A stretch of 64,000 nucleotides of DNA from Tardiphaga sp. (GTDB lineage Bacteria > Pseudomonadota > Alphaproteobacteria > Rhizobiales > Xanthobacteraceae), in contig NZ_JBIISY010000003.1 in assembly GCF_044340795.1 (NCBI RefSeq), forward strand, positions 1,471 to 65,470. The letters are read 5' to 3'. The position numbers and the translations under genes are program-made. Shown here piece after piece: positions 8,451-60,751 of the stretch. Position 1 is the first letter of the stretch. Each line of letters opens with the position of its first letter. Under the pieces are notes generated by a model. It was not told where the DNA came from, ran no database searches, and saw only the letters and a list, made by a program, of their open reading frames with translations.

Positions 8451-8480
8451 TGGCAATCAGCGGAAGGTTGGCCGGGCGGC

Positions 8481-31678: not shown

Positions 31679-32597
<919 letters not shown>

Positions 32598-32605
<8 letters not shown>

Positions 32606-33008
32606 GCCCAGGGAGGTTTCGGCGCCCGGCCGCAGCAAGGCACCATCGCCGCAGCGCGTCGCCGCCTTTGCCACCGGCCTGTCCGCGGAAAGCCGCGCCA
32701 GTGCCATGCTGCTCGCAAAAGGCTATCGCATCCTCGCCCGCCGCTTCCGCACGCCCCATGGCGAGATCGACATTGTGGCGCGCAAGCGCAACCTGATCGC
32801 CTTTGTCGAGGTGAAGGCGCGCGAGACGCTCGACGATGCCGCCTATGCCGTCACCCCGCAGCAGCAGGTGCGCATCAGCAATGCCGCGCAGGGCTGGCTG
32901 ATGGCACATCCCGAACATGCGGATTTCGACATGCGCTTCGACGTCATTCTCATTGCGCCGAAACATCTGCCACGCCATCTGTTAGCAGCATTCGACGCCG
33001 CCTCCTGA
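32598..33008 (+). CDS. yraN: YraN family putative endonuclease
   Basis: [19 protein letters not shown]. Confidence 0.92.
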
Positions 33009-33030
33009 CGCTTCACTTCGGAATGATCTC

Positions 33031-33972
33031 ATGACCCTGAACATCGCCGTCCAGATGGACCCCATCGCCCGCATCAATCACAAGGGCGATTCCACCTTCG
33101 CGATGCTGCTCGAAGCGCAGAAGCGCGGCCATCGGCTGTCCTATTACACCCCGGACAAGCTCTCGCTGCGCGGCAATGACGTGGTGGCGCCGGTGCAGCC
33201 GCTGGATGTTCGCGATATCGAGGGCGACTACTTCACATTGGGCGAGCCCGAGCGCGTCAATATGGAGAGCTTTGATGTGGTGCTGCTGCGGCAGGACCCG
33301 CCGTTCGATCTTGCCTACATCACCTCGACGCATCTGCTGGAGCGCATCCATCCGAAGACGCTGGTGGTGAACGATCCGGCCTCGGTGCGCAACGCGCCGG
33401 AAAAAATCTTCGTGATGGGCTTCAACGACCTGATGCCGCCAACGCTGATCTCGCGCGACAAGGACGAGATCAACGCCTTTCGCGCGGAGCATGGTGCGGT
33501 GGTGATGAAGCCGCTGCATGGCCATGGCGGCGCCGCCGTCTTCCGCGTGCTGCCGCAGGACATGAATTTCGGCTCACTCTACGATCTGTTCTCCGTGACC
33601 TTCAAGGAACAATGGGTGATCCAGCGCTTCCTTCCCGAGGTGAAGCATGGCGACAAGCGCATTATCCTGGTGGACGGCGAATTCGCCGGCGCCGTGAACC
33701 GCGTGCCCGCGGACGACGACCTGCGCTCCAACATGGTGCGGGGAGGGGCTGCGAAATCGACCGAGCTTTCGCCGCGCGAGCGCGAGATCTGCGAACGCGT
33801 CGGCCCGGAGCTGCGCAAGCGCGGATTGCTGTTTGTCGGCATCGACGTGATCGACGGCAATCTCACCGAGATCAATGTGACGTCACCCACGGGCATCCGC
33901 GCCATTTCTAAGCTTGGCGGGCCGGATGTGGCGGCGCGGATTTGGGATGTGATCGAGGCGAAGCGGAAGTAG
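33031..33972 (+). CDS. gshB: Glutathione synthetase
   Basis: [34 protein letters not shown]. Confidence 0.97.
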
Positions 33973-34147
33973 CCGGCGCTTCGTTGCGCTGCATTGCATC
34001 GCAACAGATTGAATAATTCTACGGCGCTTCTCTCACGTGCTTTCGCTTGCCAGTTCGTATCGGCAGGCGCAGCATGATGCTGCACGCTCACTCAATCGAG
34101 CGGCCCGCTGTTTGGCGGCTAACAAAAGCACAGTGTTGGAGGAACGC

Positions 34148-35140
34148 ATGACTTCAAACGTCTCGCGACGTTCGCTGCTCGCTCTCGGTGCCGGATTGGG
34201 CGCAGGGCTCGGCGCAAACCTCATCGCTCCCGGCCTGATCGGCAGTGCATCGGCGAAAGCGCCGAAGCTCGGCACACAGGCACCCTACTTCCATCGCTTT
34301 ACCTTTGGCGACGCTGAAGTCTCCGTGGTCTCCGATGGACCGCTACCGCTTGGCGATCCTTCCGGCACCTTTGTCGGCGTGCCCAAGGAAGACGTGCAAA
34401 AAATGCTGACGGACAATTTCCTGTCCCCCAGCAATGTCATCCTCGAACAGAACGTGCCGATCATCAACATGAACGACAAGCTCATCATGTTCGACACCGG
34501 CATGGGTACGTCGAAGCTGTTTGGTCCCACCACCGGCCGGTTGATGAAGAGCATCTCGGAGGCGGGCATCAAGCCCGAGCAGATCGATGCCATCGTCTGC
34601 TCGCATGCGCATATCGATCATATCGGCGGCATCGTCGGCGCCGACGACAAGCCTCTCTTCCCGAATGCGCAGGTCTATATCAGCGAGGAAGACTTCAAGT
34701 TCTGGACCGACGAAGGCAAGATGGGCTCGCCGCTGAAGGATTTCATCGTCCATGCGCGCAAGAACCTGATGCCGGTGAAGGATCGCCTGGTCTTCTTCAA
34801 GGACAATCAGGAATTCCTGCCCGGCGTGACCGCCATGCATGCGCCCGGCCACACCTTCGGCCACCACATGTTCATGATCACCTCGGCCGGGAAGTCGTTC
34901 GCCTTCCTCGGCGATCTCACGCATCATCAGGTGCTTCTGCTCGAGAAGCCACGGATGGAATTCTCCTACGATTCCGATCCGAAAATGGCAGCGGCTTCGC
35001 GGGTCAAGATGCTGGACATGCTGGCTGCGAACAAGACCGCTGTGATGTCCTATCACTTCGCCTGGCCGGGCTATGGTCATGTGGTGAAGGCTGGCGATGG
35101 CTTCCGCTATATCGCCGAGCCGATGATCATGAACCTGTAA
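34148..35140 (+). CDS. MBL-fold metallo-hydrolase with Tat signal
   Basis: SRRSLL; HAHIDHIGG; PGHTFGH; GDL; YHFAWPG. Confidence 0.9.
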   Translation: MTSNVSRRSLLALGAGLGAGLGANLIAPGLIGSASAKAPKLGTQAPYFHRFTFGDAEVSVVSDGPLPLGDPSGTFVGVPKEDVQKMLTDNFLSPSNVILEQNVPIINMNDKLIMFDTGMGTSKLFGPTTGRLMKSISEAGIKPEQIDAIVCSHAHIDHIGGIVGADDKPLFPNAQVYISEEDFKFWTDEGKMGSPLKDFIVHARKNLMPVKDRLVFFKDNQEFLPGVTAMHAPGHTFGHHMFMITSAGKSFAFLGDLTHHQVLLLEKPRMEFSYDSDPKMAAASRVKMLDMLAANKTAVMSYHFAWPGYGHVVKAGDGFRYIAEPMIMNL

Positions 35141-36242
35141 GCGCCCGGAACGCCGGCGACAGTCCTGCGGCAGAGGATGCCGCAGGATGCGCATCGCCCG
35201 ACCGATCCGTGCTCGCAAGCGAACCATTGGTCAATGCGGAGAGGCCGGCCTTATGGATGCGGAAGGTGTTGCGGCCAGCTTTCTTGGCCGCATAGAGCGC
35301 CGCATCTGCCATCACATTGAGCTGGACTGACGGCGTGTGACTGTCCGCGAGTGCGATGCCCACCGACGCGCCGATCTTCAGCTGATGGCCGCGATACTTC
35401 ATGGGATAGCCGAGCTGGGCGATGATCGCGCGGGCCGTATCGGACGCTTCCGCGAGCCTGGCGTCGGAGCCGAGCAGCACAGCAAATTCGTCGCCGCCAA
35501 TACGCGCGACCAGATCGGCATCGGCGCAGACATCGCGGATCCGCTCGGCGGCCTGTTTCAGGCATTCATCGCCGGCAGCGTGACCGAGACTGTCGTTGAC
35601 CGGCTTGAATTCATCGAGATCGATCAGCAACAGCGCGCCGAACGGCTTTGCTATCTGCGGTGACGAAAGATCGAGCGCCGAGAGCCTCGTCTGAAACTGG
35701 CTGCGATTGGCGAGACCGGTCAGAACGTCGAATTCGGCGAGATAGCGGGTGCGGTCGGAGAGAATCTTTTCTTCCGTGATGTCCTGCTTGATGCCGAAGA
35801 TGCGAACGGCCACGCCGTCAACGGATTCCACCGTGGCCGTGATCCTGATCCAGCGCCTGTTGCCCTTGAAGCTGATGATTTCCGCATCGAGCGTGAAGCC
35901 GGTGCAATCTTCGATCGCCTTGCTGCGCCGCTTGGTCAGCTCTCTGGCGGACTCTTCGGGATAACATCTGAAGGTGGCGCCGCGGTCCAGCGCGGAGCCC
36001 CGCGGCAGATCGAAAATGTCATAGACCACGTCGGTCCAGGTCAGCGCTTCACTCGGCAATTCACATTCCCACACGCCGATGCGTGCAGCCGCCGACGCGC
36101 GATCGAAAATCTTCTGGCTATGGGCGAGCCTGGTCGCCTGGTGTTCGAGTTCGGCCTGCTGTACGGCGACCTGCGCCCGCAAGGCGGCTATCAGTTCGGC
36201 GTCGTCGGAAACAACGGTTTGCCTGGATGGGCAATCTGACAT
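35127..36242 (-). CDS. Diguanylate cyclase (PAS-like plus GGDEF)
   Basis: DVLTGLANR, DLDEFKPVNDSLGHAAGD, ARIGGDEF. Confidence 0.92.
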   Translation of the reverse strand: MSDCPSRQTVVSDDAELIAALRAQVAVQQAELEHQATRLAHSQKIFDRASAAARIGVWECELPSEALTWTDVVYDIFDLPRGSALDRGATFRCYPEESARELTKRRSKAIEDCTGFTLDAEIISFKGNRRWIRITATVESVDGVAVRIFGIKQDITEEKILSDRTRYLAEFDVLTGLANRSQFQTRLSALDLSSPQIAKPFGALLLIDLDEFKPVNDSLGHAAGDECLKQAAERIRDVCADADLVARIGGDEFAVLLGSDARLAEASDTARAIIAQLGYPMKYRGHQLKIGASVGIALADSHTPSVQLNVMADAALYAAKKAGRNTFRIHKAGLSALTNGSLASTDRSGDAHPAASSAAGLSPAFRALTGS

Positions 36243-36419
36243 GCGGCGTGGGCCCGGACTTCGTCGTCACTCGATGATCGTCGTTCTTCGCATGGCCGAG
36301 TTTATGATTTGCTGCAAGCGGATCGATGTCGGTCGCGACGATCTGCACCATGCAGCGCTAACGTTCTTGTCGACATTAAAATACACTGCTACCTTTGATT
36401 GAATGTCAGAGGTTGCCTG

Positions 36420-36521
36420 ATGCAGCATGTCGCGACGGTCGCATTCGAGGGGATCGAGGCCCGCGCGGTGGACGTGCAGGTGCAGGTCGTGCCGGGCCTT
36501 CCGAATTTCATAATAAGGTAG
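36420..36521 (+). pseudogene. comM: 5' fragment of comM/yifB (Mg-chelatase-like AAA+ ATPase), interrupted by an insertion
   Basis: MQHVATVAFEGIEARAVDVQVQVVPGLPNF matches the YifB/ComM N-terminus; it then reads ATA ATA AGG TAG where the family continues with IVGLPD. Confidence 0.85.
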
Positions 36522-36538
36522 ACAATTAACCCCGCTTC

Positions 36539-36829
36539 TCAGAGTTCCGTTTTGCGATTTTGACCTTCGGCGATGCTGCGATGAAGCAGTTCTTCGTTGA
36601 ATGCGAGCTGGTGGTGGCTCAGGGCCTCTTTGAACGCTTCTGCAAAAGCAGGGAAATCGACCCAAGAGTTTTCGGCGACGTGAAGCGGCCACTCGTACAA
36701 CCAGCCGTCGGAGACAACGCGCTTCCGCAGCAGCTCCGCTGCCGGAATATAGACCGTCGGGACGTCTGATTTGGCCTCGAGCCCACTGTGCGTCACCCGC
36801 CATTGCTGATTCTCAAAAAGTTGCGCCAT
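36539..36829 (-). CDS. Hypothetical protein, 96 aa
   Basis: GGAG RBS; YEWPLHVAENSWVDFPAFAEAF segment looks globular; divergent from rep. Confidence 0.7.
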   Translation of the reverse strand: MAQLFENQQWRVTHSGLEAKSDVPTVYIPAAELLRKRVVSDGWLYEWPLHVAENSWVDFPAFAEAFKEALSHHQLAFNEELLHRSIAEGQNRKTEL

Positions 36830-36934: not shown

Positions 36935-39928
36935 GTGCCACAGCCGAGTGTTCTCGACCAAAAATTGCGTCTATCGGTGAATCGTGCCCTCATCAACAAG
37001 AACGAGGCCGGCAACGAGAGCCTGTTCAAGCAGGGCTGGGAGAACGTCGAGCTGACGCCCCGGGAGCTCGCCGACGAAGTCGATCAGGGCCATGCCTATG
37101 CCTGCCAGCTCTCGGGAACCCGCAGCGCTGCAAATTTCGTTAGGTCAGACATCCTGTCCGTGGACATCGACCAGGATCTTTCGATCTCCGAAGCGAAGAA
37201 GCTGCCCTTCGCCCAGCAACACCTGACGATCCTCTACACCACACCAAGCCACAGCGAGAGTCGCCACCGCTTTCGCCTCATCTTTGCGCTGCCGAGGTCC
37301 ATTGAGACACCGCAAGAGATGCGGGCCGCGCTGCGGAGCCTTGCTCTCCGCTTTGGCGGCGATCGATCGGCAACCGATCCGGCCCGCCTGTTCTATGGCT
37401 CCCGAGGCTCCAATCCGCAGGTCTTTGAAAGAGCGATCACTGCCGACGTCCTCGATGAGCTTATCGCGCAGGGACTGGAAGCTGATCAACGCGAAAGCCC
37501 CAAGAGCGGACGGACCACCACCGTTTCGAAGCAGCGGATCTCCCCCGATCGAATCATCACCCTTGAGGACGGGCGGACACAGCTGTTCCGCGAACTGGAG
37601 CCGAAGACGCGCATCTGCTGCCCGTTTCACTACGATCGAAACGCCAGCGCGTTCGTCACCACCTCGCAGGCCGGTGTGAACGGAATCCATTGCATGACGT
37701 GCCGACAATCGTTCTGGCCGCCCTCTGCGACACAGTTTGACGACTTCTCCGACTTTGATGAACGAGTGAAGGAAGCCGAACACTACTTCGCTGGCAATGT
37801 GGATATTGGACCGTTCCAGAAACTCCTGACTGGTGTGATCCATCATCCCGGCTTGGCCCACTCACGCATCTATCGCACCGAAGGCCAATTCCTGAAACTA
37901 CCGGAAAAGCTTCCCGAAGGCCTTGTCTTCATCAAAAGCCCCAAAGGCACCGGAAAGACCGCTGAGCTTGCGCGCGCTATGCAGCAGAGAACAGCCGCAA
38001 AGGAAGCTTCGAGTCACGATCTGCTCGACTTGCTCGATGACGGGCCTGACACCCCCGACTCGCGGCTCCGCACACACCGTGGGTCGACACTGCTGATTGG
38101 ACACCGGATAGCGCTTATCAGGCAGACCTGCAGTCGACTTGGGCTCGAGTGCTATCTCGACTTCGAAGGCCCCCTGACGAGCAAAGCGCTCGGTGTTTGC
38201 CTCGACAGCCTCGAGCGACTTACCTGGACTGAGCAGGTCAGCACTTACAAGTCTGAGTCACGCGAGAATTTGTTTGAGACGGTCGTAATTGACGAGTCGG
38301 AGCAGGTTCTCTCTCATTTTTTGTCTCCGCTCATCGATAACAGTTCGCGCAACGCGATCTTCATGATCTTCTGTCGGCTTCTCCGTCGAGCAAAGCGCAT
38401 TATCACGCTTGATGCTGACCTTGGCTGGCTCACGTTCGAAACGATCACCAAGCTCGCGCAACGGATGGACGATAGCACGAGAAAGCCAAGTTCACTGTAT
38501 CTCAATGAACGCAAGATCGGTTCAAAGCTGCAGGTCTTCGCGTCAAAGGATCACCTGATTGGTGACCTCAAGCAGATGGTCAACGACGGTAAACGCGTGT
38601 TCGTCACATCGAACTCAATGGGACAGATCGACCGGTTGCATCAGGGCCTAATGGAGCAAGCAACCGACGAACTCCGATGCATTCGCATCACCTCGGAGAC
38701 CGTCAAGGCCGATGAGGCGAAAGCTTTCGTCGCTGATCCCCCAGCAGAGGCCTTGAAATACGATGTGATCCTGACGTCGCCTTCACTCGGCACTGGCGTT
38801 GACATTACCTTTCCAGAGCAGGCCGAGCTGATCGATGTTGTGTACGGGATCTTCGAGACGGGCATCACGACACACTTTGACATGGATCAGCAGCTCTGGC
38901 GGGTTCGTCACCCCGGCGAAGTGAAGGTTTGGATCAGTCCGAGAACAGCGTCGTTCGATACGTCTGCGGATGTTGTGCGACGCGAGATCCAGCAGAAGCA
39001 GCTCTTCAAAAGTGTTCTCAGCGATTACGACGATAACCTAAGGCCAGAATATCACACCAACGACGAGTTTATCGATATGGCGGTGCTGGCAACCTCCCAG
39101 CAGCGCATGTCGAAGAACAACCTTAAGCGCAACTTCCTCGCGATGAAACGGCAGCACGGACATGCGATCGAGTTCATCGACCGTGACCAGACCGCGGCAG
39201 GATATGGTCGTGATCTGAACGAGATCGGCAAGCGTCTTGCCGACCGGCAGTATCGGGAAAAACTCAAGGCGGCTCTGAGGCTAACAGAGGAACAAGCGAC
39301 GGAGATAGACGAACGGATCAAGGCTCGCGATGACGTCACAGAGAGTGAGCACGCGGCATATGACAGATATCGAATGGAGCGCTTCTACCGCGAGCCGATC
39401 ACCGACAAGATGATCGACGACGATAATCGAGGGCGCCTCCGTCAACAGGTGATGCGGTTCGAGCAGCTATCAGACCACCAGAGCTTGCGTGACGCACGAA
39501 TTCTTGACCAGGGTAGCGAGTATGCGCTTAAGCTCCGATTTGTCACGGACTGGCGATCTTCCGGCGCATTGCTGGCTGAGCTGCTCACGCTTGCCGGCGT
39601 CTATGCCGACGGCAGATTCCTGGCCAATGTCGCTTACGACCGGCTGTCGCTAGTCTCGATGATGCGGCGCGCGATTAAGCTGAAACCGATCATTGAGGGC
39701 CAACTAGGCGTCGAGGTGCGGATGGACGACAGCAGGGGGTGTGATCAGCTCCGCGAGCTCCTGAAGCTGGTCGGGTTGGACCAGCTAGCTGCCGGCAAAA
39801 CCAAGGCTAAAGCAGTCGCGGGAGGCAAGACGATATATCGCTATCAGCTGGACGAAATCGCGCTGAACAGAATGCAGGCGATCGCTGATCACAGAGCATC
39901 ACAAAGCGCCCGTTCGATGATGCGCTAA
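36935..39928 (+). CDS. Replication protein: AEP-like primase + Zn ribbon + SF2 (UL9/CyRepA1-like) helicase
   Basis: SVDID, YTTPSH...RFRLIF, DPARLFYG; CPFH...CMTC; KSPKGTGKT, VIDESEQ, LDADL, SPSLGTGVDI, QQLWRVR. Confidence 0.8.
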   Translation: MPQPSVLDQKLRLSVNRALINKNEAGNESLFKQGWENVELTPRELADEVDQGHAYACQLSGTRSAANFVRSDILSVDIDQDLSISEAKKLPFAQQHLTILYTTPSHSESRHRFRLIFALPRSIETPQEMRAALRSLALRFGGDRSATDPARLFYGSRGSNPQVFERAITADVLDELIAQGLEADQRESPKSGRTTTVSKQRISPDRIITLEDGRTQLFRELEPKTRICCPFHYDRNASAFVTTSQAGVNGIHCMTCRQSFWPPSATQFDDFSDFDERVKEAEHYFAGNVDIGPFQKLLTGVIHHPGLAHSRIYRTEGQFLKLPEKLPEGLVFIKSPKGTGKTAELARAMQQRTAAKEASSHDLLDLLDDGPDTPDSRLRTHRGSTLLIGHRIALIRQTCSRLGLECYLDFEGPLTSKALGVCLDSLERLTWTEQVSTYKSESRENLFETVVIDESEQVLSHFLSPLIDNSSRNAIFMIFCRLLRRAKRIITLDADLGWLTFETITKLAQRMDDSTRKPSSLYLNERKIGSKLQVFASKDHLIGDLKQMVNDGKRVFVTSNSMGQIDRLHQGLMEQATDELRCIRITSETVKADEAKAFVADPPAEALKYDVILTSPSLGTGVDITFPEQAELIDVVYGIFETGITTHFDMDQQLWRVRHPGEVKVWISPRTASFDTSADVVRREIQQKQLFKSVLSDYDDNLRPEYHTNDEFIDMAVLATSQQRMSKNNLKRNFLAMKRQHGHAIEFIDRDQTAAGYGRDLNEIGKRLADRQYREKLKAALRLTEEQATEIDERIKARDDVTESEHAAYDRYRMERFYREPITDKMIDDDNRGRLRQQVMRFEQLSDHQSLRDARILDQGSEYALKLRFVTDWRSSGALLAELLTLAGVYADGRFLANVAYDRLSLVSMMRRAIKLKPIIEGQLGVEVRMDDSRGCDQLRELLKLVGLDQLAAGKTKAKAVAGGKTIYRYQLDEIALNRMQAIADHRASQSARSMMR

Positions 39929-39992: not shown

Positions 39993-40517
39993 CTACCCGT
40001 TGTTACCGGTCAAACGACGCACCGGGCCTCCAATGTTGCGCTGAAACGCGGGATGCTTATGGAGGAAGACAATCATGGTTGCGACGAATGTGCCGCACAA
40101 CGTCGCTGCCGGATCTCGCGTACAATGGTCGAATTGGCGGATGGAGGCGAGCAATGCCTCTTCGAGGTCGTTGTCCAACATGGAAACGCCAAAGAGCCGC
40201 TTACAGGCCTCCACATCTTCAAAACCGTCCACCAGATCATCGAACGTAACGCGGCTTACAGCGCCCGGGTAGTCCAGCGCCTCCGTGGAGTGACGATCTT
40301 CGCGCGTGTGGTAGTCCAAAGGCATGCTCGTGTGTTGCGGCGTGTCGTCATCCCCGTCGTGCAGATCGTAATAGTCTGCCTCCCCTTGCATCCATGCGGG
40401 CTGCGCTTTGGGGAAAGGAATGATTTGCGCACTCTCGCGATTTGGCGTCTGTGCGCGCCCGTCCTCATCCTCCGCTGAGCCGGCATGGTCCGGCACCTCA
40501 AACGTCGTGTTCTTCAT
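39993..40517 (-). CDS. Paralogue A of an unrecognised acidic family, 174 aa
   Basis: Shares LFGVxxLDxD...FLxxHP C-terminal domain with B and C; CAGGA RBS. Confidence 0.75.
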   Translation of the reverse strand: MKNTTFEVPDHAGSAEDEDGRAQTPNRESAQIIPFPKAQPAWMQGEADYYDLHDGDDDTPQHTSMPLDYHTREDRHSTEALDYPGAVSRVTFDDLVDGFEDVEACKRLFGVSMLDNDLEEALLASIRQFDHCTRDPAATLCGTFVATMIVFLHKHPAFQRNIGGPVRRLTGNNG

Positions 40518-40588
40518 ATTGATCGTTCCTGCATTATCTTTCGCCAGCCATTCTGGCTGGACTGATATCGCCGCCTGTCGCTCGCACT

Positions 40589-40602
40589 AATACGGAAACC
40601 TA
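40589..40602 (-). promoter_or_regulatory. Conserved upstream repeat, copy 1 (TAGGTTTCCGTATT)
   Basis: 72 bp upstream of the A start; identical to the copy at 41682. Confidence 0.75.
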
Positions 40603-40621
40603 AATGTGCGAATGGCGAAAT

Positions 40622-40648
40622 AAAAAAAGCCACCGCACTAGCGGTGGC
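40622..40648 (-). terminator. Intrinsic terminator after paralogue B
   Basis: Minus strand GCCACCGC-TAGT-GCGGTGGC then TTTTTT. Confidence 0.8.
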
Positions 40649-40668
40649 CTCTTGAAGCAGTGCATCGC

Positions 40669-41073
40669 TTACCCGATTGCGACGATTTTTTTGTCCGTTC
40701 CGCTCTTGTCGAAAAAGGCGGCATGTGCTGGATGGGACCGCAAGAAGAGCGCCATTGCGAGGAATGTCCGGTCAAGGTCAGGACTCTCCCGGTACTCTCC
40801 ATCCGGAACGGACGCCTCGACAGATGCCTTCAAAGCTTCAAACGTGACGTCATCAATGGATCTCATGAAAAACAGATTGGCCATCGAAGACGATTTGCGC
40901 ATCGCTTGGTGAACAATCTCGCTCAGATTTTGCGCTTGAAAGTCAGCGTAGTCGTGGTCGTATTGCAACGACTTCACAATACCTTCGTCTTGGAGATCTT
41001 CGAAAGCCTCCATTTCTGCGTTACAGATCATGCTCATTGTCGAATCGACAATTATGCGGGTCTTGGACTTCAT
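40669..41073 (-). CDS. Paralogue B, 134 aa
   Basis: Aligns without gaps to C over 115 aa (36 identities by hand); CAGGAG RBS. Confidence 0.85.
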   Translation of the reverse strand: MKSKTRIIVDSTMSMICNAEMEAFEDLQDEGIVKSLQYDHDYADFQAQNLSEIVHQAMRKSSSMANLFFMRSIDDVTFEALKASVEASVPDGEYRESPDLDRTFLAMALFLRSHPAHAAFFDKSGTDKKIVAIG

Positions 41074-41147
41074 TGTAATGCTCCTGTTGTCATCGCGGTC
41101 ACGGCGACCGTCGACTGTTAACGGGATACGGGGACCCTACTCGCGGT

Positions 41148-41161
41148 AATACCGAAACTTG
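41148..41161 (-). promoter_or_regulatory. Conserved upstream repeat, copy 2 (CAAGTTTCGGTATT)
   Basis: 75 bp upstream of the B start. Confidence 0.7.
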
Positions 41162-41183
41162 ATTTCGCGAATCGGAAAGCATG

Positions 41184-41215
41184 AAAAAGGCTACCGCTGT
41201 GAAGCGGTAGCCTTT
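41184..41215 (-). terminator. Intrinsic terminator after paralogue C
   Basis: AAAGGCTACCGCT-4 nt-AGCGGTAGCCTTT with a U-tract on the minus strand. Confidence 0.8.
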
Positions 41216-41245
41216 CGGTTTTCTTCAATGACTTGCCCAGCTGAC

Positions 41246-41608
41246 CTATGTTGAACTGTATGACGGATGGTGAGCAATGAAGGCACCGATGGCCTTGAAC
41301 GCTCGATCCAGCTCTGCGATCTCGGTGTGCGGGAGATCGCGAGTGACGCCGTTGATAGCGATCTTTGCTGAGGCGAATGTATCATGGTCGATGTAATCGA
41401 CACCCAACATCTTCGCCATTACGGTTCTTTTGCGGAGGGCGATGTGAGCCTGTTCGAGAAACTCTCGAGTTCTCAGGTCTTCGCTCTCATGGTCGTAGTC
41501 CAGCTCGTCTTTGACCTCCGAGCCACGTAACTCTTCATACTCCTCTTCGCATTGATAGCGAATTCGGTTCAGAACGTGGTCGATGCGAATTTGTTTAATC
41601 GACTTCAA
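41246..41608 (-). CDS. Paralogue C, 120 aa, TTG start
   Basis: GGAG RBS then TTG AAG TCG gives MKSIKQIRID, matching B's MKSKTRIIVD; ends FIAHHPSYSST. Confidence 0.85.
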   Translation of the reverse strand: MKSIKQIRIDHVLNRIRYQCEEEYEELRGSEVKDELDYDHESEDLRTREFLEQAHIALRKRTVMAKMLGVDYIDHDTFASAKIAINGVTRDLPHTEIAELDRAFKAIGAFIAHHPSYSST

Positions 41609-41681
41609 GGTGCGTGCTCCAAAATGCCGACCAGGCACCACGCCTGGTCGTCCATTGGGATACGCTGGTGCGCTGCGCATC

Positions 41682-41695
41682 AATACGGAAACCTA
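41682..41695 (-). promoter_or_regulatory. Conserved upstream repeat, copy 3 (TAGGTTTCCGTATT)
   Basis: 74 bp upstream of the C start; its TAG is the stop codon of the upstream gene. Confidence 0.75.
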
Positions 41696-42193
41696 TTTTT
41701 GCGACCGAGTATTGCGATTTGGCAGAGATTTGACGATCCCACTCTTCCGCAACTGCCCAATAATCCGGGTGATCGTCTTCGGTTCCTGTGTATACTCCTT
41801 AAACTTGCGACGGAGGGACGCCGCAACCTCTTCATCGGTCGCGTATGGGTTGTTGCCAGCTTCCTGATCGAAGCGAGCTCCTAGCGTCTCGCGAAATTCC
41901 GGCGACCACTTCAGCGGTGCTCCAGCTTTCTGTTTCTCATAGTAAAAAACAGAGCCGATGCCATCCATTAAATCGAGCCAATGAAATGGATTTTTAGGAT
42001 CAAGCTTTGCTTCTCGAAACAGCCTGCCAACGATGCTCTCTTCGTTAGTCGCGCTTTCTTGGATACAGAAGAACATATCGACTACTGTCTCATTATCCAG
42101 CTCGCCCGACTCTGATGGATCCAACCAGCTATCGTCTTCTCCGAATGCTGCGAGCATCTTCTCGAAATTTTGTTTGTAAGGATGTATGGGCAT
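41693..42193 (-). CDS. Hypothetical protein D, 166 aa, possibly DNA-binding
   Basis: Acidic N-half; LDPKNPFHW, GAPLKWS, basic helical C-terminus. Function is inference. Confidence 0.7.
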   Translation of the reverse strand: MPIHPYKQNFEKMLAAFGEDDSWLDPSESGELDNETVVDMFFCIQESATNEESIVGRLFREAKLDPKNPFHWLDLMDGIGSVFYYEKQKAGAPLKWSPEFRETLGARFDQEAGNNPYATDEEVAASLRRKFKEYTQEPKTITRIIGQLRKSGIVKSLPNRNTRSQK

Positions 42194-42861: not shown

Positions 42862-44028
42862 CTAGCGCGCAGTAAAGAAGAAATCTTCGCTCCCAGACAA
42901 CGACCCGTAGCTATAAGGCTGCTGTTTTTTGTTGGTTGCCGACAGAACATCGTCGCGCACCAGATCGAACAGTCGCCGAATTTCTAGGTTGGGTGTCTTG
43001 AGGCGGCGTAGCAGCGCGAGCGCGAAGGGGCTATTGTCACCGTCGCCATCGAGCGCCAGCTCGCCGTGCTTGGCCGAATACACGATAAGCGTACCGGCAT
43101 CTGGCTCAGTGCGTGCCAGTCCGCGAGTCAGCGCGCGAGTTGCCACAGTACGCTTCATCTGATCAAGGAATGGATTGTTCCGACAAGCATCTAACACCAC
43201 CAGACGGAGGCGACGCGCCGACTCGGCAGCGCTTAGCACCTTCCCGATATCGATCGACTCAAGATCGATATCGCGGTCGACGCGCAACCTCGCATCTATT
43301 GGGATAAGATAGTTGTTACCTTTGTATTCGATCCCATGGCCCGAGTAGTAAATCACCGCCCAGTCTGCGTTGTCCGCTACCTGGGCAAACTCGCTCAGTG
43401 CAACTACGAGATCTTCCCGCCTTAGATCGAGCTTTAGGGTGACTGATTGAAAGCCGGCCTCCATGAGTTCGCGGTGTAGAGCTCTAGCATCATTTGCGGC
43501 ATTTGGCAGCACTGGGACGTGGCCATAGTTGCTATTTCCGATCACCAGCGCGACACGTCGTCCACCCGTCACAGCAACTCGATCGTTGGTCGGCGGCGTA
43601 ATCGCCGCTGGCGCAATTGCAGGCACGGCTGGAGGAGCCGCCGCAACGGCGGTCTTCGAAGGCTTTGCCGCGTCGCGTCGCTTTGGGGCTTCAGCAACGC
43701 GAGCGGTCCGTGCTCGTCCGCTAGCGGCGGCTTCCTGTAAGCGGCCACCGCCGCCACCTAAACCGCCGCCGCCAAACGTGTTCATCATACATTGGCGCAC
43801 TGCAGGGGTAGCGCGTGCACGGCACGATTCGAGATCGCCACCAGCGCGCATGCAAGGGCCGACGATCGGCCGTCCAACCCGCGCGCGGCAGGCTTCGAGC
43901 GCGGCTTCGCGCGACTGCGCCTTGGCGTGCGGCGCGCTCTCCAGCAGCGCCATGAACAGAAGTAGCAAGGTGGCCAGCACACGCCCGAAGGCGCGACAGT
44001 CCACTGTCGCGCCTGAGGAAGATCGCAT
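42862..44028 (-). CDS. Exported caspase-like peptidase C14 with a 4-Cys N-terminal domain
   Basis: Signal/TM segment, four Cys, Gly-rich linker, RVALVIGNS, YSGHG, LDACRNNP; start uncertain. Confidence 0.88.
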   Translation of the reverse strand: MRSSSGATVDCRAFGRVLATLLLLFMALLESAPHAKAQSREAALEACRARVGRPIVGPCMRAGGDLESCRARATPAVRQCMMNTFGGGGLGGGGGRLQEAAASGRARTARVAEAPKRRDAAKPSKTAVAAAPPAVPAIAPAAITPPTNDRVAVTGGRRVALVIGNSNYGHVPVLPNAANDARALHRELMEAGFQSVTLKLDLRREDLVVALSEFAQVADNADWAVIYYSGHGIEYKGNNYLIPIDARLRVDRDIDLESIDIGKVLSAAESARRLRLVVLDACRNNPFLDQMKRTVATRALTRGLARTEPDAGTLIVYSAKHGELALDGDGDNSPFALALLRRLKTPNLEIRRLFDLVRDDVLSATNKKQQPYSYGSLSGSEDFFFTAR

Positions 44029-44158
44029 GGGGAAAAGGGCGGGCGTGCTGCGTATAGAACAACCGGTCAATAACGACATCTCGGGACAAAGCCTGTGGGG
44101 TCAAAAATGACTAAGCTTAAGCGCGCAATGTCCCAAGCCTACAACAAAGCGCCTCCCA

Positions 44159-49156: not shown

Positions 49157-49741
49157 TTATAGCATCTGAACGACTTTTCGCTGCGCGTCTGCATCGACGT
49201 CGATGTAACGCTGCGTGGTGCGAAGATTCGTGTGGCCAGCCAGCTCCTGAACGTCACGGATTGATCCGCCCACCGCCGAGATCCTCCGAGCAGCATTAGT
49301 GATGAACGTTCTTCGGCCGCTGTGGCTTGAACAGCCGGTGAAGCCCAGCACCTCGTACCAGCGAGAAAACATGTTCACGATTGTCTGGGGGCTGACTCGA
49401 TCTGACCTCTCAGTTGAAATGACGTGTTTCCCGACTTTGGGTCCAAGATGATCCTTCAGATCCTGAAGGGCCGACTTGAGCTCACCGTTCATAGGGATGA
49501 TCCGGCCTGACCTGCCTTTACTCGCCTTGTTCTGAAGGTGGATGGCCTGACCGACTTGCCCGTCCGCATCGGTGATCATCTCCCAGGACAGGAGGGCAAT
49601 CTCCTTGGCCCTCAGTCCAGCTTTGAGGGACAAGAGGAAGATGGCTCGGTTTCGAATGGGGTATCGAGACTTTAGGAGAAAGCCGAGAATAGCTTCGGCT
49701 TGACCTTTGGTTAGGGTCTTCGCTTGTCTTCCAAGAGACAT
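49157..49741 (-). CDS. Short tyrosine recombinase, catalytic domain only, 194 aa
   Basis: GLRAKE (R), SKG (K), SHSGRR (HxxR), LAGH, TQRY (Y). Confidence 0.9.
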   Translation of the reverse strand: MSLGRQAKTLTKGQAEAILGFLLKSRYPIRNRAIFLLSLKAGLRAKEIALLSWEMITDADGQVGQAIHLQNKASKGRSGRIIPMNGELKSALQDLKDHLGPKVGKHVISTERSDRVSPQTIVNMFSRWYEVLGFTGCSSHSGRRTFITNAARRISAVGGSIRDVQELAGHTNLRTTQRYIDVDADAQRKVVQML

Positions 49742-50022
49742 AGTAGGGCGCTCCGTTAATATGAGCACCATATTCAGCCTCGCATATTCGAACAGGGTTG
49801 ACCGCGACGTCAGCTTTGCGCCAGTTGCGACGGTGAAGACACAGCTACCGGCGATCCTATGCGGGACTTCAGCACAGGCTCTACCGATAACCGAAAGCTC
49901 GGCATTTCTGGCGCTGGACAAATAACGCCATTGATGATGGCGCCATCGCCCCTGGCTCGTCGGCATTCGGACAACACCCGACGCCGCCAACCAATTAGTT
50001 TGCTCAGTTCGCTGAAGCGATG

Positions 50023-51345
50023 CTACTTCGCAGGACCAAAGAACAGGTTCGGGAAATACAGCGCGATGTCTGGATACAAGATGATGATGAGAACTCCGAG
50101 CATCGTTACAAGCACATATGGGATGACCGACCAATAAATGTCGCTCATCGTAACTTCGGGCGGCGCAACGCTCTTTAAGTAGAATAAGTTAAAGCCGAAT
50201 GGTGGTGTCATATATCCAATCTCCATCATGATGATGAAGATCACGCCGAACCAGATTGCGTCAAAACCATACGATTGGATCACGGGCAGGAACACCGGCA
50301 ACGTGATCAACATGATGCCGACTGGGTCCAACACCATTCCGAGGATCAGCAGCACGACCAGCATGAACGCCAGTGAGCCCCACTTTCCGCCGGGCACGAG
50401 GGTCATCAGCTGGTTCATGAGTTCATTGGCCCCGAGTGTCGTATAGGCTGTCGAGAAGGCATGCGCCGCGAACAGGATCCACATCACCAGCGCGGTGAGA
50501 CGCAATGTCTGGATCGCAGCGTCACTCAGCACCTCCGCCGTCAATTTGCGGTGGACCGCAGAGGCCACCAGGGCGCCGAAAACACCGAGCGCAGCCGCCT
50601 CGGTAGGCGTCGCAAAACCGCCGAAGATCGCACCAAGCACAAGGACCACGATGAACAACGGCAAAAACACCGCCTTCAGCGACTCCAGCTTCAAGCGCCA
50701 GTCGCCGCGCTCCTCCATCGGCAACGCCGGCGCAAGCGACGGCTGGAGCCAAGCACGAAGGCCGATATAGATCGACACAAGCGCGAACAGCAGAATTCCG
50801 GGCCCGATGCCCGATGCGAAAAGTCGTCCGACCGAGACCTCGGTCAACATCGCATAGAGCACCATTAGAATTGACGGCGGAATGAGAATTCCCCAGCCGC
50901 CACCGCAATTTATCGCCCCCACTGCCAAACGTTTGTCGTAGCCGCGCTCCAGCATCCGCGGTAACGCGATCGTGCCCATAGTAACCACCGCAGCTCCGCT
51001 AATGCCGCTCATCGCAGCGAATACCGCGCAGATTGCGACTGTTCCGATGGCGAGGCCGCCGCGGAACCCACCGAACCAGACATGCATCATCCGGTAGAGG
51101 TTGTTGGCGACGCCGGACTTCTCCAGCAGCATCGCCATGAACACATACATCGGGATGGCGATGAGCGTGAAGCTCATCATCGAGTCCCAGAACTTGGAGG
51201 CGACGATATAGAAGCCCACCGGCCCCATCGTGAAATACAAGAAGATGCAGGAAATGCCGCCCAGGGTGAAGACGAGCGGAGTTCCGACGAAAAGGAAGAA
51301 TAGCAGAGAGCCGAAGAACAGCAGTGTGAGAAGCTCGACTGACAC
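50023..51345 (-). CDS. dctM: TRAP transporter large permease
   Basis: LIAIPMYVFM, GILIPPS, GFATPTEAA, TPPFGFNLF. Confidence 0.93.
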   Translation of the reverse strand: MSVELLTLLFFGSLLFFLFVGTPLVFTLGGISCIFLYFTMGPVGFYIVASKFWDSMMSFTLIAIPMYVFMAMLLEKSGVANNLYRMMHVWFGGFRGGLAIGTVAICAVFAAMSGISGAAVVTMGTIALPRMLERGYDKRLAVGAINCGGGWGILIPPSILMVLYAMLTEVSVGRLFASGIGPGILLFALVSIYIGLRAWLQPSLAPALPMEERGDWRLKLESLKAVFLPLFIVVLVLGAIFGGFATPTEAAALGVFGALVASAVHRKLTAEVLSDAAIQTLRLTALVMWILFAAHAFSTAYTTLGANELMNQLMTLVPGGKWGSLAFMLVVLLILGMVLDPVGIMLITLPVFLPVIQSYGFDAIWFGVIFIIMMEIGYMTPPFGFNLFYLKSVAPPEVTMSDIYWSVIPYVLVTMLGVLIIILYPDIALYFPNLFFGPAK

Positions 51346-51360
51346 GATGGGTCCGTTCGT

Positions 51361-51903
51361 TCAATGAGTGGGTTCGTCGGAGGCCTGCTTGCCGAATGTG
51401 GCCGGATCGTTCTCTGCCCCATTCACGGTGCGGATGTCCGACACCGTTCGCACGATGCCCTGCAAAAGCAGAAGAATGCCGGCCACCGGAATGACCATCT
51501 TGACGGGCCAGATATACGGATCCCAGATACTCGACGACGTCTCGCGCTGCGCCACCGATTCCCAGGCCATATCGATCCCCTGATAGACCAGCACGCCCAT
51601 GAAGATGTAAAACAGGAACGAGGTCGCGAGATCGACGATGGCCTTCTTCACGCGATTAAAGCGGCCATAGATGATGTCGACATTGACATGCGCGCGTTCG
51701 ACCAACAGATAGCCGCCCGCGATGACGGCATAGACGCCGAAAATGAGCTGGGCGAATTCCGCCGTCCAGATCGCGGCCCGACCGACCACATAGCGCATGA
51801 CGACGTCGGCGAGCAGAAGGACGAACATCGGCACGATCAGCCATGAGGCAACCCGTCCGATCACCGCATTAAGCGATGTCACAGCTCTGGCCAGTTTCAG
51901 CAT
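51361..51903 (-). CDS. dctQ: TRAP transporter small permease
   Basis: 4 TM helices; HVNVDI motif. Confidence 0.88.
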   Translation of the reverse strand: MLKLARAVTSLNAVIGRVASWLIVPMFVLLLADVVMRYVVGRAAIWTAEFAQLIFGVYAVIAGGYLLVERAHVNVDIIYGRFNRVKKAIVDLATSFLFYIFMGVLVYQGIDMAWESVAQRETSSSIWDPYIWPVKMVIPVAGILLLLQGIVRTVSDIRTVNGAENDPATFGKQASDEPTH

Positions 51904-52008
51904 CTCGTCATCCGAACCTCTTGAGCGGCAGCGGGGACGCGGATCGAACCCGCCTCCCCCTGCGCGCAGTCGCACATGCTCGTGGTGATCTCACCGGCCG
52001 GTTCGATG

Positions 52009-53052
52009 TCAGACGTAACCGAGGTCGCCCCTCAGCTTGTTCATCGCCTCGGCGCCCGCCGCCGCAATGGGCCCCTTGTCGATCTCTTTCTGCATGATGA
52101 CCTTCGAGGCTTCGGAAAGTTTCTTCAGAACGTCATCGGGAAAACGGACGACCTCGACATTCATCTTTGCCCGGCCCGTGCTCAGGGCCACAGCTTCCTG
52201 CTGTAGGTATTCGATCGTCCGCCGGTAATAGCGCTCCTCAACGAGGGACGTCAGGATGAGCCGAAGATCGGCTGGAAGCTTGTTCAGAGCCGCGAGATTG
52301 AAGACATAGACGTCGTTCGTGAAGCCGAGTGCAGGCTTCATGTGAAATGGCGCGACTTCCCAGAACTTCATCGACAACGCACCGACCGCAGCGCCCCAAT
52401 GGGCACCATCGACCACCCCCGTCGACATCGCCTGATAGATCTCGGGCCCGGCGACTTGCTGCGGCGCCATGCCTGCTGCGGCAAGATATTCAAGCATCGT
52501 CCCCGCAGAGCGAACCTTTAACGAGCCAAGATCCGCGACCGACGTGATCTTTTTCTTCAACACGATCTCTGTCGGATAAGCCTTGTCGCCGAGCATCATC
52601 ACACCTTTCGGCTGCAGCTCGTCATTCACCATCCTCTCGATGCCGAGATTTTTGGTGACATGCATCATTTCCCAGCTCTCGCGCAGCGCACCCGGGACGC
52701 CGTAATATAGGCCCATCGCCTGCGCCTCGCCGAGCACATAGCCGGGCGAGATCGTCCCCATCGGCACGACGCCGCGGCGCACGATATTGTAGATCTCGCG
52801 ATCCTTGGCGATCTCGCCGGCACCGAACAATTCGAGCTTGAAGCGGCCGCCGGTTCGCTGCTCAAGCTCCTTCTGCAACACGACGAGACTGTCGTTGTAA
52901 GACCCCGACGCCTTTGGCCAATGCGCCTGTACCTTCCAGGACACTTTCTCTTGAGCGTTGGCCGAGCTTACAATCGCAGGCATTGCCAATGCCGCTGCCA
53001 GCGATCCCCCCACAAGGTTACGTCGGTTGATCGTCTTGCCATGATCGGGCAT
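52009..53052 (-). CDS. dctP: TRAP substrate-binding protein with Tat-like signal
   Basis: NRRNLV; LKVRSAG; EIYQAMSTGVVDGA. Confidence 0.9.
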   Translation of the reverse strand: MPDHGKTINRRNLVGGSLAAALAMPAIVSSANAQEKVSWKVQAHWPKASGSYNDSLVVLQKELEQRTGGRFKLELFGAGEIAKDREIYNIVRRGVVPMGTISPGYVLGEAQAMGLYYGVPGALRESWEMMHVTKNLGIERMVNDELQPKGVMMLGDKAYPTEIVLKKKITSVADLGSLKVRSAGTMLEYLAAAGMAPQQVAGPEIYQAMSTGVVDGAHWGAAVGALSMKFWEVAPFHMKPALGFTNDVYVFNLAALNKLPADLRLILTSLVEERYYRRTIEYLQQEAVALSTGRAKMNVEVVRFPDDVLKKLSEASKVIMQKEIDKGPIAAAGAEAMNKLRGDLGYV

Positions 53053-53479
53053 CGAGGCGTCCTCCTGAATTTCTCGTCGAGCGAGATATGTTTATTTTTC
53101 GAAATCAGATCATGCGATCCAAGGCGAAGTCAACATATTGACCAATGAGATAACTTCTCTCTCGCTGGCAGGATCGATAATTGCTGCGAGGTTTGGCGTG
53201 CATGCGCTGATACACCGCACCGAACGTCGATCTATGTTGCCTCACCTTGGAAGGATGTGTCGGCTGCGAGTTCATGCTGCGTTGCCAGCAAAATCGCTGC
53301 AGGTCCGGTTCAGCCAGTCACAGATCAACTGAGCCTCTCCTCGCAGGATGGCATCGCCCTGCCCTTGGATAACCGGCACGACCGTGTCGCTTTCCTTGTC
53401 CCGTATCTTCCAGCAATCGGCTTGACGAAGCACCTCAAACCGATCGTGCGGCTGCAGAATGTGCTGATGGTCGACGACT

Positions 53480-56008
53480 CTATCCACTCGCACCCTCGCT
53501 CTTGGAGTCAGGTTTTCCCGCCTGGTGAAAGATCGCCTCGATCCGATCGAGGTCGCGCAGTCGGAGATCGCGCTGCGCGAACGGGATCTCGATGCCTTCG
53601 CGCCGGAATCGTTTCAAGATCTCCAGCCGGACGTCGTTGGCGACGCCCGCATCGGTGCTGATATTGCCGACATGGAAGAACACGGTGAATTCCAGCGCAT
53701 CAGCGCCGAAATTGCCAAGGATGGCGAATGGCTCGGGTATCTTCAGCGCCCGCTCATGCTGGCTGACGATATCAAGCAGAGTTGCAATGACCTGGTCGGG
53801 ATCCGTGTCGTAGGCGGTGCGCACCATGACCGACAGGCGCGCCGTATAGCTGCCGTGCATCCAGTTGACGACCTGGCCGCTGATGAGATCGGCATTGGGG
53901 ACGATGACTGAGACATTGTCATAGGTCGCGATCTCGGTGGCACGGACATTGATGCGTTTGACAACGCCCATGCGGGCACCAACCTCGATCCGGTCCCCAA
54001 CCTTGATCGGTCGCTCGACCAATAGGATCAGTCCCGAGACAAAGTTGTTGATGATGGACTGCAGACCGAACCCGATACCGACAGACAGCGCGCCCGCGAC
54101 GATCGCGATATTCTGCAGGTTGAGGCCGACATATGAAAGCGCGACAATCACGGCCAGGATGATGCCGAGATAGCCGACGCCGGTACGGATCGAGCTGCGG
54201 ACGCCGAGATCCAGATTGGTTTCCGGAAGGAAACGGCCATCGAGCCATCGTTGCAACGCCCTTGTCGCTGCCATGCCGACGATCAGAACGACGATGGCAC
54301 CGAGAATGGCCGAAGGCGAGATGGTGAATTGCCCTATCGAGAAGCCGAAGAACGCCGACGAGACGGAGCCGAGAACATCATCGGAGTTGATTCCCCATGT
54401 GGCCAGCACTGTGAACGCGGCCAGGCCGATCAGGGCCAGTTGCAGAACTCCACTGATGAGCGTGGCGATCTGACGGACCGCCGCATTCCCCAGACCGGCA
54501 GTCTGCCGGAGAAACCGTCCTGTCCGCCCCTGGAAGGCGAAGGTTGCGCTGACGAGCGCATCGCTGAGCTGACTCAGCAGGATCAGGCTCATCAGCACCG
54601 CGCAGATGATCGTCATTTCCCCGGTCACGAAGCGCGCAAAGGCCACATATCCGCTTATGGCGGCCAGGACCGTGGCCATGGCTGCCAGCCATCCGAGCGG
54701 AATGAGTAGCCGCCATGCCGAGCGACCGCGAAGATCCGCAACGGCTGTTTCATCCTCATCGGTCGTGGTCGGCGCAAATGCACGCAACACCGCGATAAAC
54801 AGGACGGCCTTGATCAAAGCAATGCTGGCCTGGCTAAAGGTCAGCAGCGCGGTCGGTGCCGAGATCGTTCGATTGGTCGCGTCGATGAGCACGCCGGCGG
54901 CAGCGGCAAAACCAAGCAGGACGGCCAACGGTACGACTCCCTCGGCGACTGCATCTTCGATTTTGATCAATCGCCATGATGGGCGTCCCGGTGCCAGCAC
55001 GGCGGTCGCAAGACTGGAGAAGAATGCTGCAAACGTCGTTCCCACGAAAAGTGCGCGGACGATCCCCGCAACATCGAGTGGCAGCACAGCAAGCGCAATC
55101 AAGGCGTGATAAAGTACAAGAAGCGCGACACCAGGAATCACAGTGCCAACGAAAACAATTGCCGCCGCACTGCCTGGCTTGCGCAATTCCGGCGGAGCGA
55201 CGACTTGCTGGTCGCGCGACGTCCAGCGCAACTGCCAACGACGGCCGGGCGGAAGGAAAAATCCCAAGACAACAATAGCCGCGATCGCAACGCCCGAGAA
55301 AGCACGCAATGGCTGCGACGCGAGACTGTCGACCCAGCGCGACACAAGCTCGCGCAGTCGCGATACGGTGTCGGGAATGGTCGCGGCGAGGTCCAGCCAG
55401 AATGAGGGGTTTAGAACGCTGGGCGAGCGTTCTGTAACTGAATCTGTGAAAATTGCGCGGCGTCGGTCCGAGATGGCGTCAGCGACTTGCTGCGCGCGCA
55501 CGTTCAGCAGTCTGGCCTGTTGAACGATGCCTTGCTGCGCCACTTTCTGCGCCACAAGCTTGGCGCGCTCCAGCTTGATGTCATCGGACTGCGATGCCGC
55601 ATCCGCAGCGCTCGGCGCCAACTCCGCAGCGCGTTGCGTAACTTCGTCAAGCTTTGGCGTCATTTCACCGATGAGTTCGCGGACACCTGCTTGAACGAGA
55701 CCAGCGCGATCGCGCAGGTCGTCGAGCGTTGTCTCGGAAATCACGCGAAATCGGAGCGCCTGCTCCGCTGTATCCAATGTCTCCTTCCAGAAATTCAACT
55801 TGCCTTGAGCATCGGGAAACACCGGCGCTGGAACTGTCGGAAGATCTTCGTCCCGTTTTGGAGCGACCGCTTCCTCAGCCGAGGTTGTAGGTGCGGCTTG
55901 TGAGTCGCCCGGCGCGGCAGCGGCTGGAGAGACTCTGCCATCTAACCCAAAGGGCGATGGCGATACAATCAGAAGGACCGCAATTACAGCGAGCCGCAAA
56001 AGCTTCAT
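53480..56008 (-). CDS. Large MscS-family mechanosensitive channel (DUF3772-like N-terminus)
   Basis: GALSVGIGFGLQSIINNFVSGLILLVERPIKVGD, IVPNADL. Confidence 0.92.
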   Translation of the reverse strand: MKLLRLAVIAVLLIVSPSPFGLDGRVSPAAAAPGDSQAAPTTSAEEAVAPKRDEDLPTVPAPVFPDAQGKLNFWKETLDTAEQALRFRVISETTLDDLRDRAGLVQAGVRELIGEMTPKLDEVTQRAAELAPSAADAASQSDDIKLERAKLVAQKVAQQGIVQQARLLNVRAQQVADAISDRRRAIFTDSVTERSPSVLNPSFWLDLAATIPDTVSRLRELVSRWVDSLASQPLRAFSGVAIAAIVVLGFFLPPGRRWQLRWTSRDQQVVAPPELRKPGSAAAIVFVGTVIPGVALLVLYHALIALAVLPLDVAGIVRALFVGTTFAAFFSSLATAVLAPGRPSWRLIKIEDAVAEGVVPLAVLLGFAAAAGVLIDATNRTISAPTALLTFSQASIALIKAVLFIAVLRAFAPTTTDEDETAVADLRGRSAWRLLIPLGWLAAMATVLAAISGYVAFARFVTGEMTIICAVLMSLILLSQLSDALVSATFAFQGRTGRFLRQTAGLGNAAVRQIATLISGVLQLALIGLAAFTVLATWGINSDDVLGSVSSAFFGFSIGQFTISPSAILGAIVVLIVGMAATRALQRWLDGRFLPETNLDLGVRSSIRTGVGYLGIILAVIVALSYVGLNLQNIAIVAGALSVGIGFGLQSIINNFVSGLILLVERPIKVGDRIEVGARMGVVKRINVRATEIATYDNVSVIVPNADLISGQVVNWMHGSYTARLSVMVRTAYDTDPDQVIATLLDIVSQHERALKIPEPFAILGNFGADALEFTVFFHVGNISTDAGVANDVRLEILKRFRREGIEIPFAQRDLRLRDLDRIEAIFHQAGKPDSKSEGASG

Positions 56009-56517
56009 GGGTGATCCAAAGGCTTGGAGGTTCTAAATACGCGAGCCGGGATCAACGGAGCATGGCTTTTTGACGATTGATGGGTGCTCGCCCCCGGCGC
56101 GAAGAAGGTTGACGGCGCCTGTTGACGCAAAATGTTCCGCCGGCTGCCTGCCTCGCCACTTGGCGGAATCGCTCAATTATCCCGAATGCAGCGCTTGCGG
56201 TCCGACGTGCCGCCTCCTCGACCATTGCGTCGATAGTTGCCCTGATCTTTGTGGCACTATCCCAAGTCCCTTCAGTCCTTTTCATATTCCCTCCTCATCG
56301 CTTCAAGCTCAAATCAGCAAGAACGGTAACAATGTGATCAGTGTTAAAATTGCGAGCACCACTACAACTGCCTCTCGGTTGCTCTCCTGCTTATTACTCA
56401 TTCGAAGATCATGTACGTTGATGCGATTGTCATTACCCGCCTCGCGAGATGATTCTATTGTCATTGAAGCGAGGGTCTTAGCGGCCGTGTTTCGCTTTGC
56501 ATCACTCATGATTGCAT

Positions 56518-57360: not shown

Positions 57361-57461
57361 CGGATTCCTTCGCTTCAAGGCAAAGATGGTGATCTAAGCC
57401 TTCAAAACATGAACCTAAGCGCCGAAATGATGCCTGCCAGTCAGGCGCAGCGCGCCTCTGG

Positions 57462-60729: not shown

Positions 60730-60751
60730 GCAGCATTCGCTTGAGCCGCCC

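Follow-up and report, generated by a model that had tools for sequence, protein, structure and literature searches.

The window analysed here (64,000 nucleotides; C104:1471-65470) comes from a Tardiphaga assembly of 448 contigs with 2.57% contamination, in which strains may be mixed. According to the ORF list, the host left flank (32457-36242) consists of a YraN-like ORF, a 313-aa ORF which we take to be gshB, a 367-aa ORF and, on the minus strand, a 371-aa ORF in which a GGDEF-type motif is visible by eye, and this flank is syntenic with that of relatives as far as the junction. The comM gene opens with an ATG at 36420 on the plus strand and continues for 30 codons, MQHVATVAFEGIEARAVDVQVQVVPGLPNF, as read from the sequence and the ORF list; past codon 30 the frame reads ATA ATA AGG and closes at a TAG stop (36519-36521). 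Positions 36380-36514 match the 5' end of the intact comM of a same-genus relative (L011) at 91% identity over 135 nt (E 3e-51), and that of two further same-genus relatives at 87-88%; the match to the intact genes breaks off at 36511-36514. Moreover, GC content, mostly 0.61-0.67 over the first 36 kb, drops to 0.50-0.60 beyond 36.5 kb and stays there until the window ends, apart from a short patch of GC 0.62 at 43-46 kb inside the otherwise lower-GC part. The split after about 30 codons, the rare codons, the stop and the composition shift had all been pointed out in a sequence-only reading of the window, and all are seen in the sequence and the GC profile. The comM 5' fragment (36420-36511, plus strand; 91% identical to L011 comM) thus comprises 30 codons and the first two bases of codon 31, and forms the B arm of an attL site. 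Its last two bases are the crossover dinucleotide AT (36510-36511), common to attL and attR and exactly central in the dyads of attP and attB described below; a crossover near 36510-36515 had been proposed beforehand. The P' arm of attL follows at 36512-36540, with a conserved outer motif, CAATTAACC, at 36523-36531 that six related elements have at an equal distance.

No 3' part of comM lies on C104, the contig of the window. The sequence-only reading had expected it elsewhere in the genome, with an integrase at the far end of the element, and both are found on contig C66. Searched with the Pfam models Mg_chelatase and ChlI, the complete assembly shows a sole comM-type gene, and it is there: comM from codon 31 onwards occupies C66:5622-7067 and encodes the ChlI (PF13541), Mg_chelatase (PF01078) and Mg_chelatase_C (PF13335) domains, in an open frame that starts within foreign sequence and reads ...NIIIVGLPDKAVSEARERV.... 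Two other outcomes had been named in advance, a simple truncation with the 3' fragment missing and an intact comM elsewhere in the assembly; the fragment exists on C66, and the assembly holds no second, intact copy. The integrase, whose recombinase type had been left unnamed, is encoded 71 bp from the comM 3' part by a 579-aa ORF (C66:3812-5551) on the opposite strand, divergent from comM and reading away from it. The protein has Resolvase (PF00239, E 9.7e-16, residues 5-163), Recombinase (PF07508, E 3.6e-12) and Zn_ribbon_recom (PF13408, E 1.1e-6) domains, all three above the curated Pfam cut-offs; it matches phrog_95 'integrase' (E 7e-68) and, weakly, SPbeta SprA structures. Its catalytic motif YSYLRMSTDLQ, which contains RMST, is conserved across 33 homologues. 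On this domain evidence the ORF encodes a large serine recombinase (LSR), a phage-type serine integrase. Both junctions, the one in the window and the one on C66, lie well within their contigs.

Alignment with the intact comM of relatives, which had been suggested as a way to define attB and attL, fixes the exchanged core to the base. The aligned sites read ...CCGAATTTC AT CATCGTCGG... for attB in relatives, ...CCGAATTTC AT AATAAGGTAGACAATTAACC... for attL in the window and ...GGTTATTAGTACATAATATT AT CATCGTCGG... for attR on C66, and AT (window 36510-36511, C66:5622-5623) is the sole dinucleotide that fits all three. When the two flanks are joined in silico at AT, they give a 1536-nt ORF of 511 codons with no internal stop; its product is identical to the ComM of a relative at 495 of 511 positions (97%) and is complete in length and in its ComM/YifB domain set. 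In the loci of three same-genus relatives whose comM is intact, the last base of the left flank falls at locus position 2942 and the first of the right flank at 2941, so that the two abut with neither gap nor overlap. Both flanks match one locus in each of the 11 same-genus loci tested, and in the complete genome G009 the genes to the left of the window stub and those to the right of the C66 comM are likewise neighbours at one locus. Once rebuilt, attP proves to be an imperfect dyad, GGTTATTAG-N24-CAATTAACC, with 17 dyad matches out of 30 and AT exactly central; the attB dyad, CCGGGCCTTCCGA / TCGGCTTGCCGG, has 14 of 30 around the same AT. Dyads of this kind in attP and attB, centred on a shared AT, are the anatomy expected of LSR att sites. 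The outer motifs GGTTATTAG and CAATTAACC each occur once in the island pieces, at its two ends. No target-site duplication is present at the junctions beyond the 2-bp core, and a search of the assembly for a complete attP, a circle junction or an empty attB found none of them.

From the core to the end of C104 the island measures 33,094 bp, and from the start of C66 to the core 5,621 bp; these pieces, separated by an assembly gap, set its minimum length at 38.7 kb. A search for overlaps joined the end of C104 neither to the start of C66 nor to any other contig, so that the island is not closed and the size and gene content given here are minimum values. Most of the island DNA is missing from five same-genus genomes; in one of the five (G015) a TRAP transporter stretch is matched at 76%, and no recombinase lies beside that copy.

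Next to attL lies a 96-aa ORF (36539-36829, minus strand) with no family match and no match in the G311 element introduced below. It is followed by the gene for a 997-aa replication protein (Rep; 36935-39928, plus strand) of the CyRepA1 family, with a primase-like N-terminus and a helicase (phrog_4913 'replication', E 1e-47), which aligns over 99% of its length, at 44.6% identity, with the CyRepA1-family Rep of the Bradyrhizobium barranii plasmid pBb144S4a. On that plasmid (L063, NZ_CP086137.1:202575-223485) the Rep is annotated as two adjacent ORFs and, as in the island, a small divergent ORF lies just upstream of it. Four small minus-strand ORFs beside Rep (39993-42193), in the part of the island with the lowest GC, have no family match; three of them end, by eye, in a similar C-terminal ...HP... 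sequence. A caspase-like peptidase (Peptidase_C14; 42862-44079, minus strand; Pfam E 1.5e-36) comes next. A reading of the region as a defence island was set aside, PADLOC having given just a weak caspase match. The gene for an outer-membrane beta-barrel protein then separates the peptidase from a tyrosine recombinase, recognised by its catalytic domain (49157-50134, minus strand; Phage_integrase E 1e-21), whose gene overlaps the extended start of dctM.

The remainder of the window (50023-64000) is cargo, identified by family scans: a TRAP transporter (DctM, DctP), an MscS-type channel, a Crp-type regulator, a histidine kinase with a LuxR-type response regulator, a BA14K protein and a Usp protein. 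The cargo runs beyond the end of the window, and the rest of C104 adds DUF2254 and NhaA. Taken together (50023-64000 and L009, C104:65000-71075), it is rich in ion, osmotic and stress functions, and the MscS-type channel carries a DUF3772 domain. The right-hand part of the island, on C66 (L008), encodes a KTSC-domain protein (22-366, plus strand), a Tle1-like (DUF2235) lipase of the phospholipase family (409-1656, minus strand; E 1.5e-73) and a DUF4019 protein, besides the LSR; no type VI secretion genes were found near the lipase in the assembled part. Neither capsid, terminase or tail genes nor relaxase, coupling protein or type IV secretion genes were found among the scanned ORFs of the 38.7 kb assembled, within which a gap remains. 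We read the element as probably a plasmid-like integrative element. The island may represent a tandem pair of elements or a single one that acquired insertions later, a second recombinase being encoded at 49157-50134. Since a 63% identical copy of the tyrosine recombinase occupies the equivalent place in the G311 element, however, this gene seems to be part of a shared backbone, and not of a second, later element.

Our interpretation, to which we give a probability of about 90%, is that comM was invaded by a plasmid-like integrative element, 38.7 kb or more in length, whose own LSR inserted it at the AT that opens codon 31. That a large integrated element has its left junction, attL, at positions 36420-36540, as had been proposed from the window alone, is borne out by the two junctions and by the comM gene that is restored on joining them. 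By the established LSR mechanism, the recombinase would have made staggered 2-bp cuts at AT in attP and attB, after which rotation of the subunits and religation would have swapped the half-sites, leaving attL in the window (comM codons 1-30 and the P' arm) and attR on C66 (the P arm and comM from codon 31 to the stop). Insertion would have inactivated comM: what remains at the 5' end is a stub of 33 aa, and the gene is probably inactive because its 3' part has no promoter, no start codon and none of the first 30 codons. After excision, which would need a directionality factor, the circle could replicate through the CyRepA1-type Rep.

It is very improbable that no LSR insertion took place here and that we are instead looking at a simple truncation or decay of comM, at a Tn7-like (AbaR-type) transposon or at a chimeric contig. 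The fragmentation and the contamination of the assembly would allow for a chimera, and Tn7-like elements are the classic invaders of comM in Acinetobacter (PMC11472951). Nevertheless, the comM 3' part starts exactly where the 5' part stops, the flanks abut in relatives, and both junctions lie deep inside their contigs, sharing just the 2-bp core and lacking the 5-bp target duplication of Tn7-like comM islands. In addition, Tn7-type (TnsA/B/C) transposition genes are absent among the ORFs scanned against Pfam (most of the large ones and a few small ones), and the same comM-fragment architecture recurs in 28 related loci.

LSR insertion into comM has ample precedent, and the case belongs to a well-documented kind, an LSR island in comM, ordinary in kind and clean in detail. 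We know of no LSR element in comM of the host's soil alphaproteobacterial family that has been described individually. Genes of the Mg-chelatase family are the commonest LSR target, with a share of 12.4% among predicted site-specific LSRs in the catalogue of Durrant et al. 2022 (PMC10083194). The comM/yifB elements catalogued there share with ours an LSR of the same Resolvase, Recombinase and Zn-ribbon composition and an insertion inside the comM coding sequence; compared with that catalogue, our element has a CyRepA1-type Rep, and its host family is one shared with Bradyrhizobium-sized genomes. In Wolbachia, phage WO sr1WO is integrated by an LSR in a magnesium chelatase gene (PMC9203015). 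As in our case, the host is an alphaproteobacterium, the recombinase is an LSR, gene fragments flank the insertion and attB was obtained by alignment with an intact copy. However, WO is a tailed prophage, whereas no phage structural genes were seen in the assembled 38.7 kb of our element, and the likeness is one at the level of the gene. A large cargo island likewise interrupts comM in the AbaR/AbGRI islands of Acinetobacter baumannii, where loss of ComM lowers transformation (PMC11472951), but those islands enter the Mg-chelatase domain by Tn7-type transposition (TniA/B/C), and ours entered at codon 31, by conservative serine site-specific recombination. More generally, comM attracts Tn7-like and other elements as a hotspot, in Acinetobacter as well as in several other Gram-negative bacteria (PMC11472951; PMC12378983), a picture that the present case leaves unchanged. 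What it adds is an LSR element in comM with both junctions resolved to the base, for attL, attR, attB and attP alike; for annotation, a 30-codon comM stub can serve as a mark of an island boundary.

Whether the element is still mobile bears on two further readings. One holds that the island arrived by LSR integration, has since lost its mobility and is now a stably inherited accessory region. We think this rather unlikely, although the cargo (the TRAP transporter, MscS, NhaA, Usp and the two-component system) is that of ordinary physiology, the assembled 38.7 kb yielded neither transfer nor packaging genes, and decayed remnants are seen at the codon-31 site in two other genomes. In one of these, the complete same-genus genome G009 (L036, G009:C1:266000-282000, about 5229-11188), comM codons 5-34 are followed by 5.8 kb of cargo and then by the last 30 codons of the gene. 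The G009 cargo encodes a GDSL-lipase autotransporter, an outer-membrane protein and an IS4/5 fragment, the recombinase is absent and a P'-type arm lies at the junction; the locus looks like the decayed remnant of an element at the codon-31 site. A 578-aa ORF of G009 that had been a candidate recombinase proved to encode the outer-membrane protein. In the other, G691 (100% complete), just the comM 5' stub is found (G691:C1:1317-1412), beside a truncated LSR gene at a contig end. Against a loss of mobility in our own element, the 579-aa LSR ORF is uninterrupted and has the catalytic RMST motif, both half-site motifs are intact, and the Rep gene is uninterrupted as well. A third genome, G594, has an intact comM and a second 5' stub beside an LSR gene at a contig start (G594:C7:108-245 / 137953-139479), perhaps because the population was mixed or the stub was duplicated.

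The other reading, a speculative one that had also been raised from the sequence alone and that we consider improbable, is one of regulated gene integrity, in which a cue would drive excision, the element would be maintained as an episome by its Rep, comM would be restored for DNA recombination, and re-integration would follow. Excision at AT would restore the comM frame exactly, as judged in silico, the LSR and both att sites look intact, and the island has a replication protein gene (phrog_4913; CyRepA1 family). Furthermore, the host retains ComEC and DprA homologues, and a role of ComM in the processing of incoming DNA is plausible there from gene content; in Rhodobacter capsulatus, ComM is reportedly needed for GTA-borne DNA (review PMC12378983). 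On the other side, neither the assembly nor the comparison with the G311 element gave excision products or a directionality factor: no small ORF is conserved between the island and the G311 element. The retention of comM remnants in G009, from which the recombinase is gone, and of a stub-only comM in G691 implies that loss of comM is tolerated in the group rather than reversed. Our literature search found no paper that links comM with active lysogeny, and the explanation favoured in print has mobile elements knocking out, in comM, a function by which they might themselves be removed (PMC11472951; PMC12378983). The A118-like prophage in comK of Listeria resembles our element in its serine integrase, in its competence-related target and in a precise excision that restores the gene; it differs in the identity of the target and in that its regulated excision has been demonstrated, whereas precise restoration in our case is in silico only. 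The demonstration in Listeria is reportedly that of Rabinovich and colleagues, from 2012. Recombination directionality factors have no common sequence family.

The LSR of the island has close relatives, most of them beside comM. A search of 400 genomes of the order and 400 of the family gave 33 LSR loci including ours, and a scan of GTDB contigs with the recombinase gave one extra locus. Of the 33 loci, 28 directly adjoin a comM fragment, as detected by tblastn with comM. In 22 of these 28 the gene is broken at codons 209-217, in the Walker A region, between HHLLM and IGSPGxGKS; in the other six (G000, G594, G446, G714, G691 and G694, from four genera) the break falls at codons 28-34, the position at which our element interrupts the gene. 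Thus, comM carries two recurrent LSR landing sites in the bacterial family of the host. At an equal distance from the break, a C(A/T)ATTAA motif recurs in the P' arms of the codon-31 elements and in that of the Walker A element of G311; the P' arms of the related elements are homologous. The complete element of G311 (34.4 kb), a genome of the same family, carries the nearest relative of our LSR, with 60% identity, and the two elements have the same gene order, with Rep (30% identity over 852 aa), the caspase-like protein (39%) and the tyrosine recombinase (63% over 194 aa) in common. The G311 attP, GGTTAATTG-N24-CAATTAACC, also has the same form as ours. It differs in its target, however: the G311 element lies at comM codon 213, in the Walker A region, with the core CT, and ours at codon 31, with the core AT.

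A quick maximum-likelihood tree was built from the 30 LSRs that reach 400 aa, the short or broken L052, L054 and L057 being left out. In it, our LSR is sister to that of G311 with an SH-aLRT support of 99, and the branches with good support cannot be reconciled with fewer than three changes of the codon-31 label. We propose, tentatively and with some doubt, that related LSRs of the family have switched repeatedly between codon 31 and codon 213 while keeping homologous attP arms, and that the palindromic AT core would permit insertion free of orientation. If so, these switches of site would be a natural series for studying how the target choice of LSRs is re-programmed. For recombinase engineering, the pair may be mildly useful in that sister enzymes with 60% identity and different natural targets can be compared. 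One conceivable route is retargeting to a related sequence. Aligned at their cores, our attB (attB1) and that of G311 (attB2) agree at 20 of 34 positions, compared with a background mean of about 9 (SD 2.6), and with 34- and 42-nt sites this register, the orthologous site aside, ranks between second and fourth among roughly 3000, in both directions. With 26-nt sites the agreement is 14 of 26 and the ranks fall to 5th and 11th. The stronger proposal, that the second site is the best internal look-alike of the first, was rejected, as the best matches to the codon-31 site within the host's own comM do not include the Walker A register. The look-alike idea is thereby downgraded from an explanation to a possibility.

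Palindromic cores are not known from the well-studied LSRs. The AT core of our element is palindromic and in this departs from the non-palindromic core used as a criterion for LSRs, a feature that bears on orientation control and not on family membership. On the standard LSR model, orientation control would be lost with such a core, and either orientation of insertion would be allowed. Among the codon-31 elements, the LSR gene adjoins the comM 5' fragment in four and the 3' fragment in ours and in that of G694; the elements that differ in this orientation may have different cores. In complete genomes, the elements at the Walker A site measure 10.4, 10.5, 19.4 and 34.4 kb. The smallest element seen, that of G694 (G694:C15:56814-62583), occupies the codon-31 site with about 4.15 kb and consists of an LSR gene and little else.
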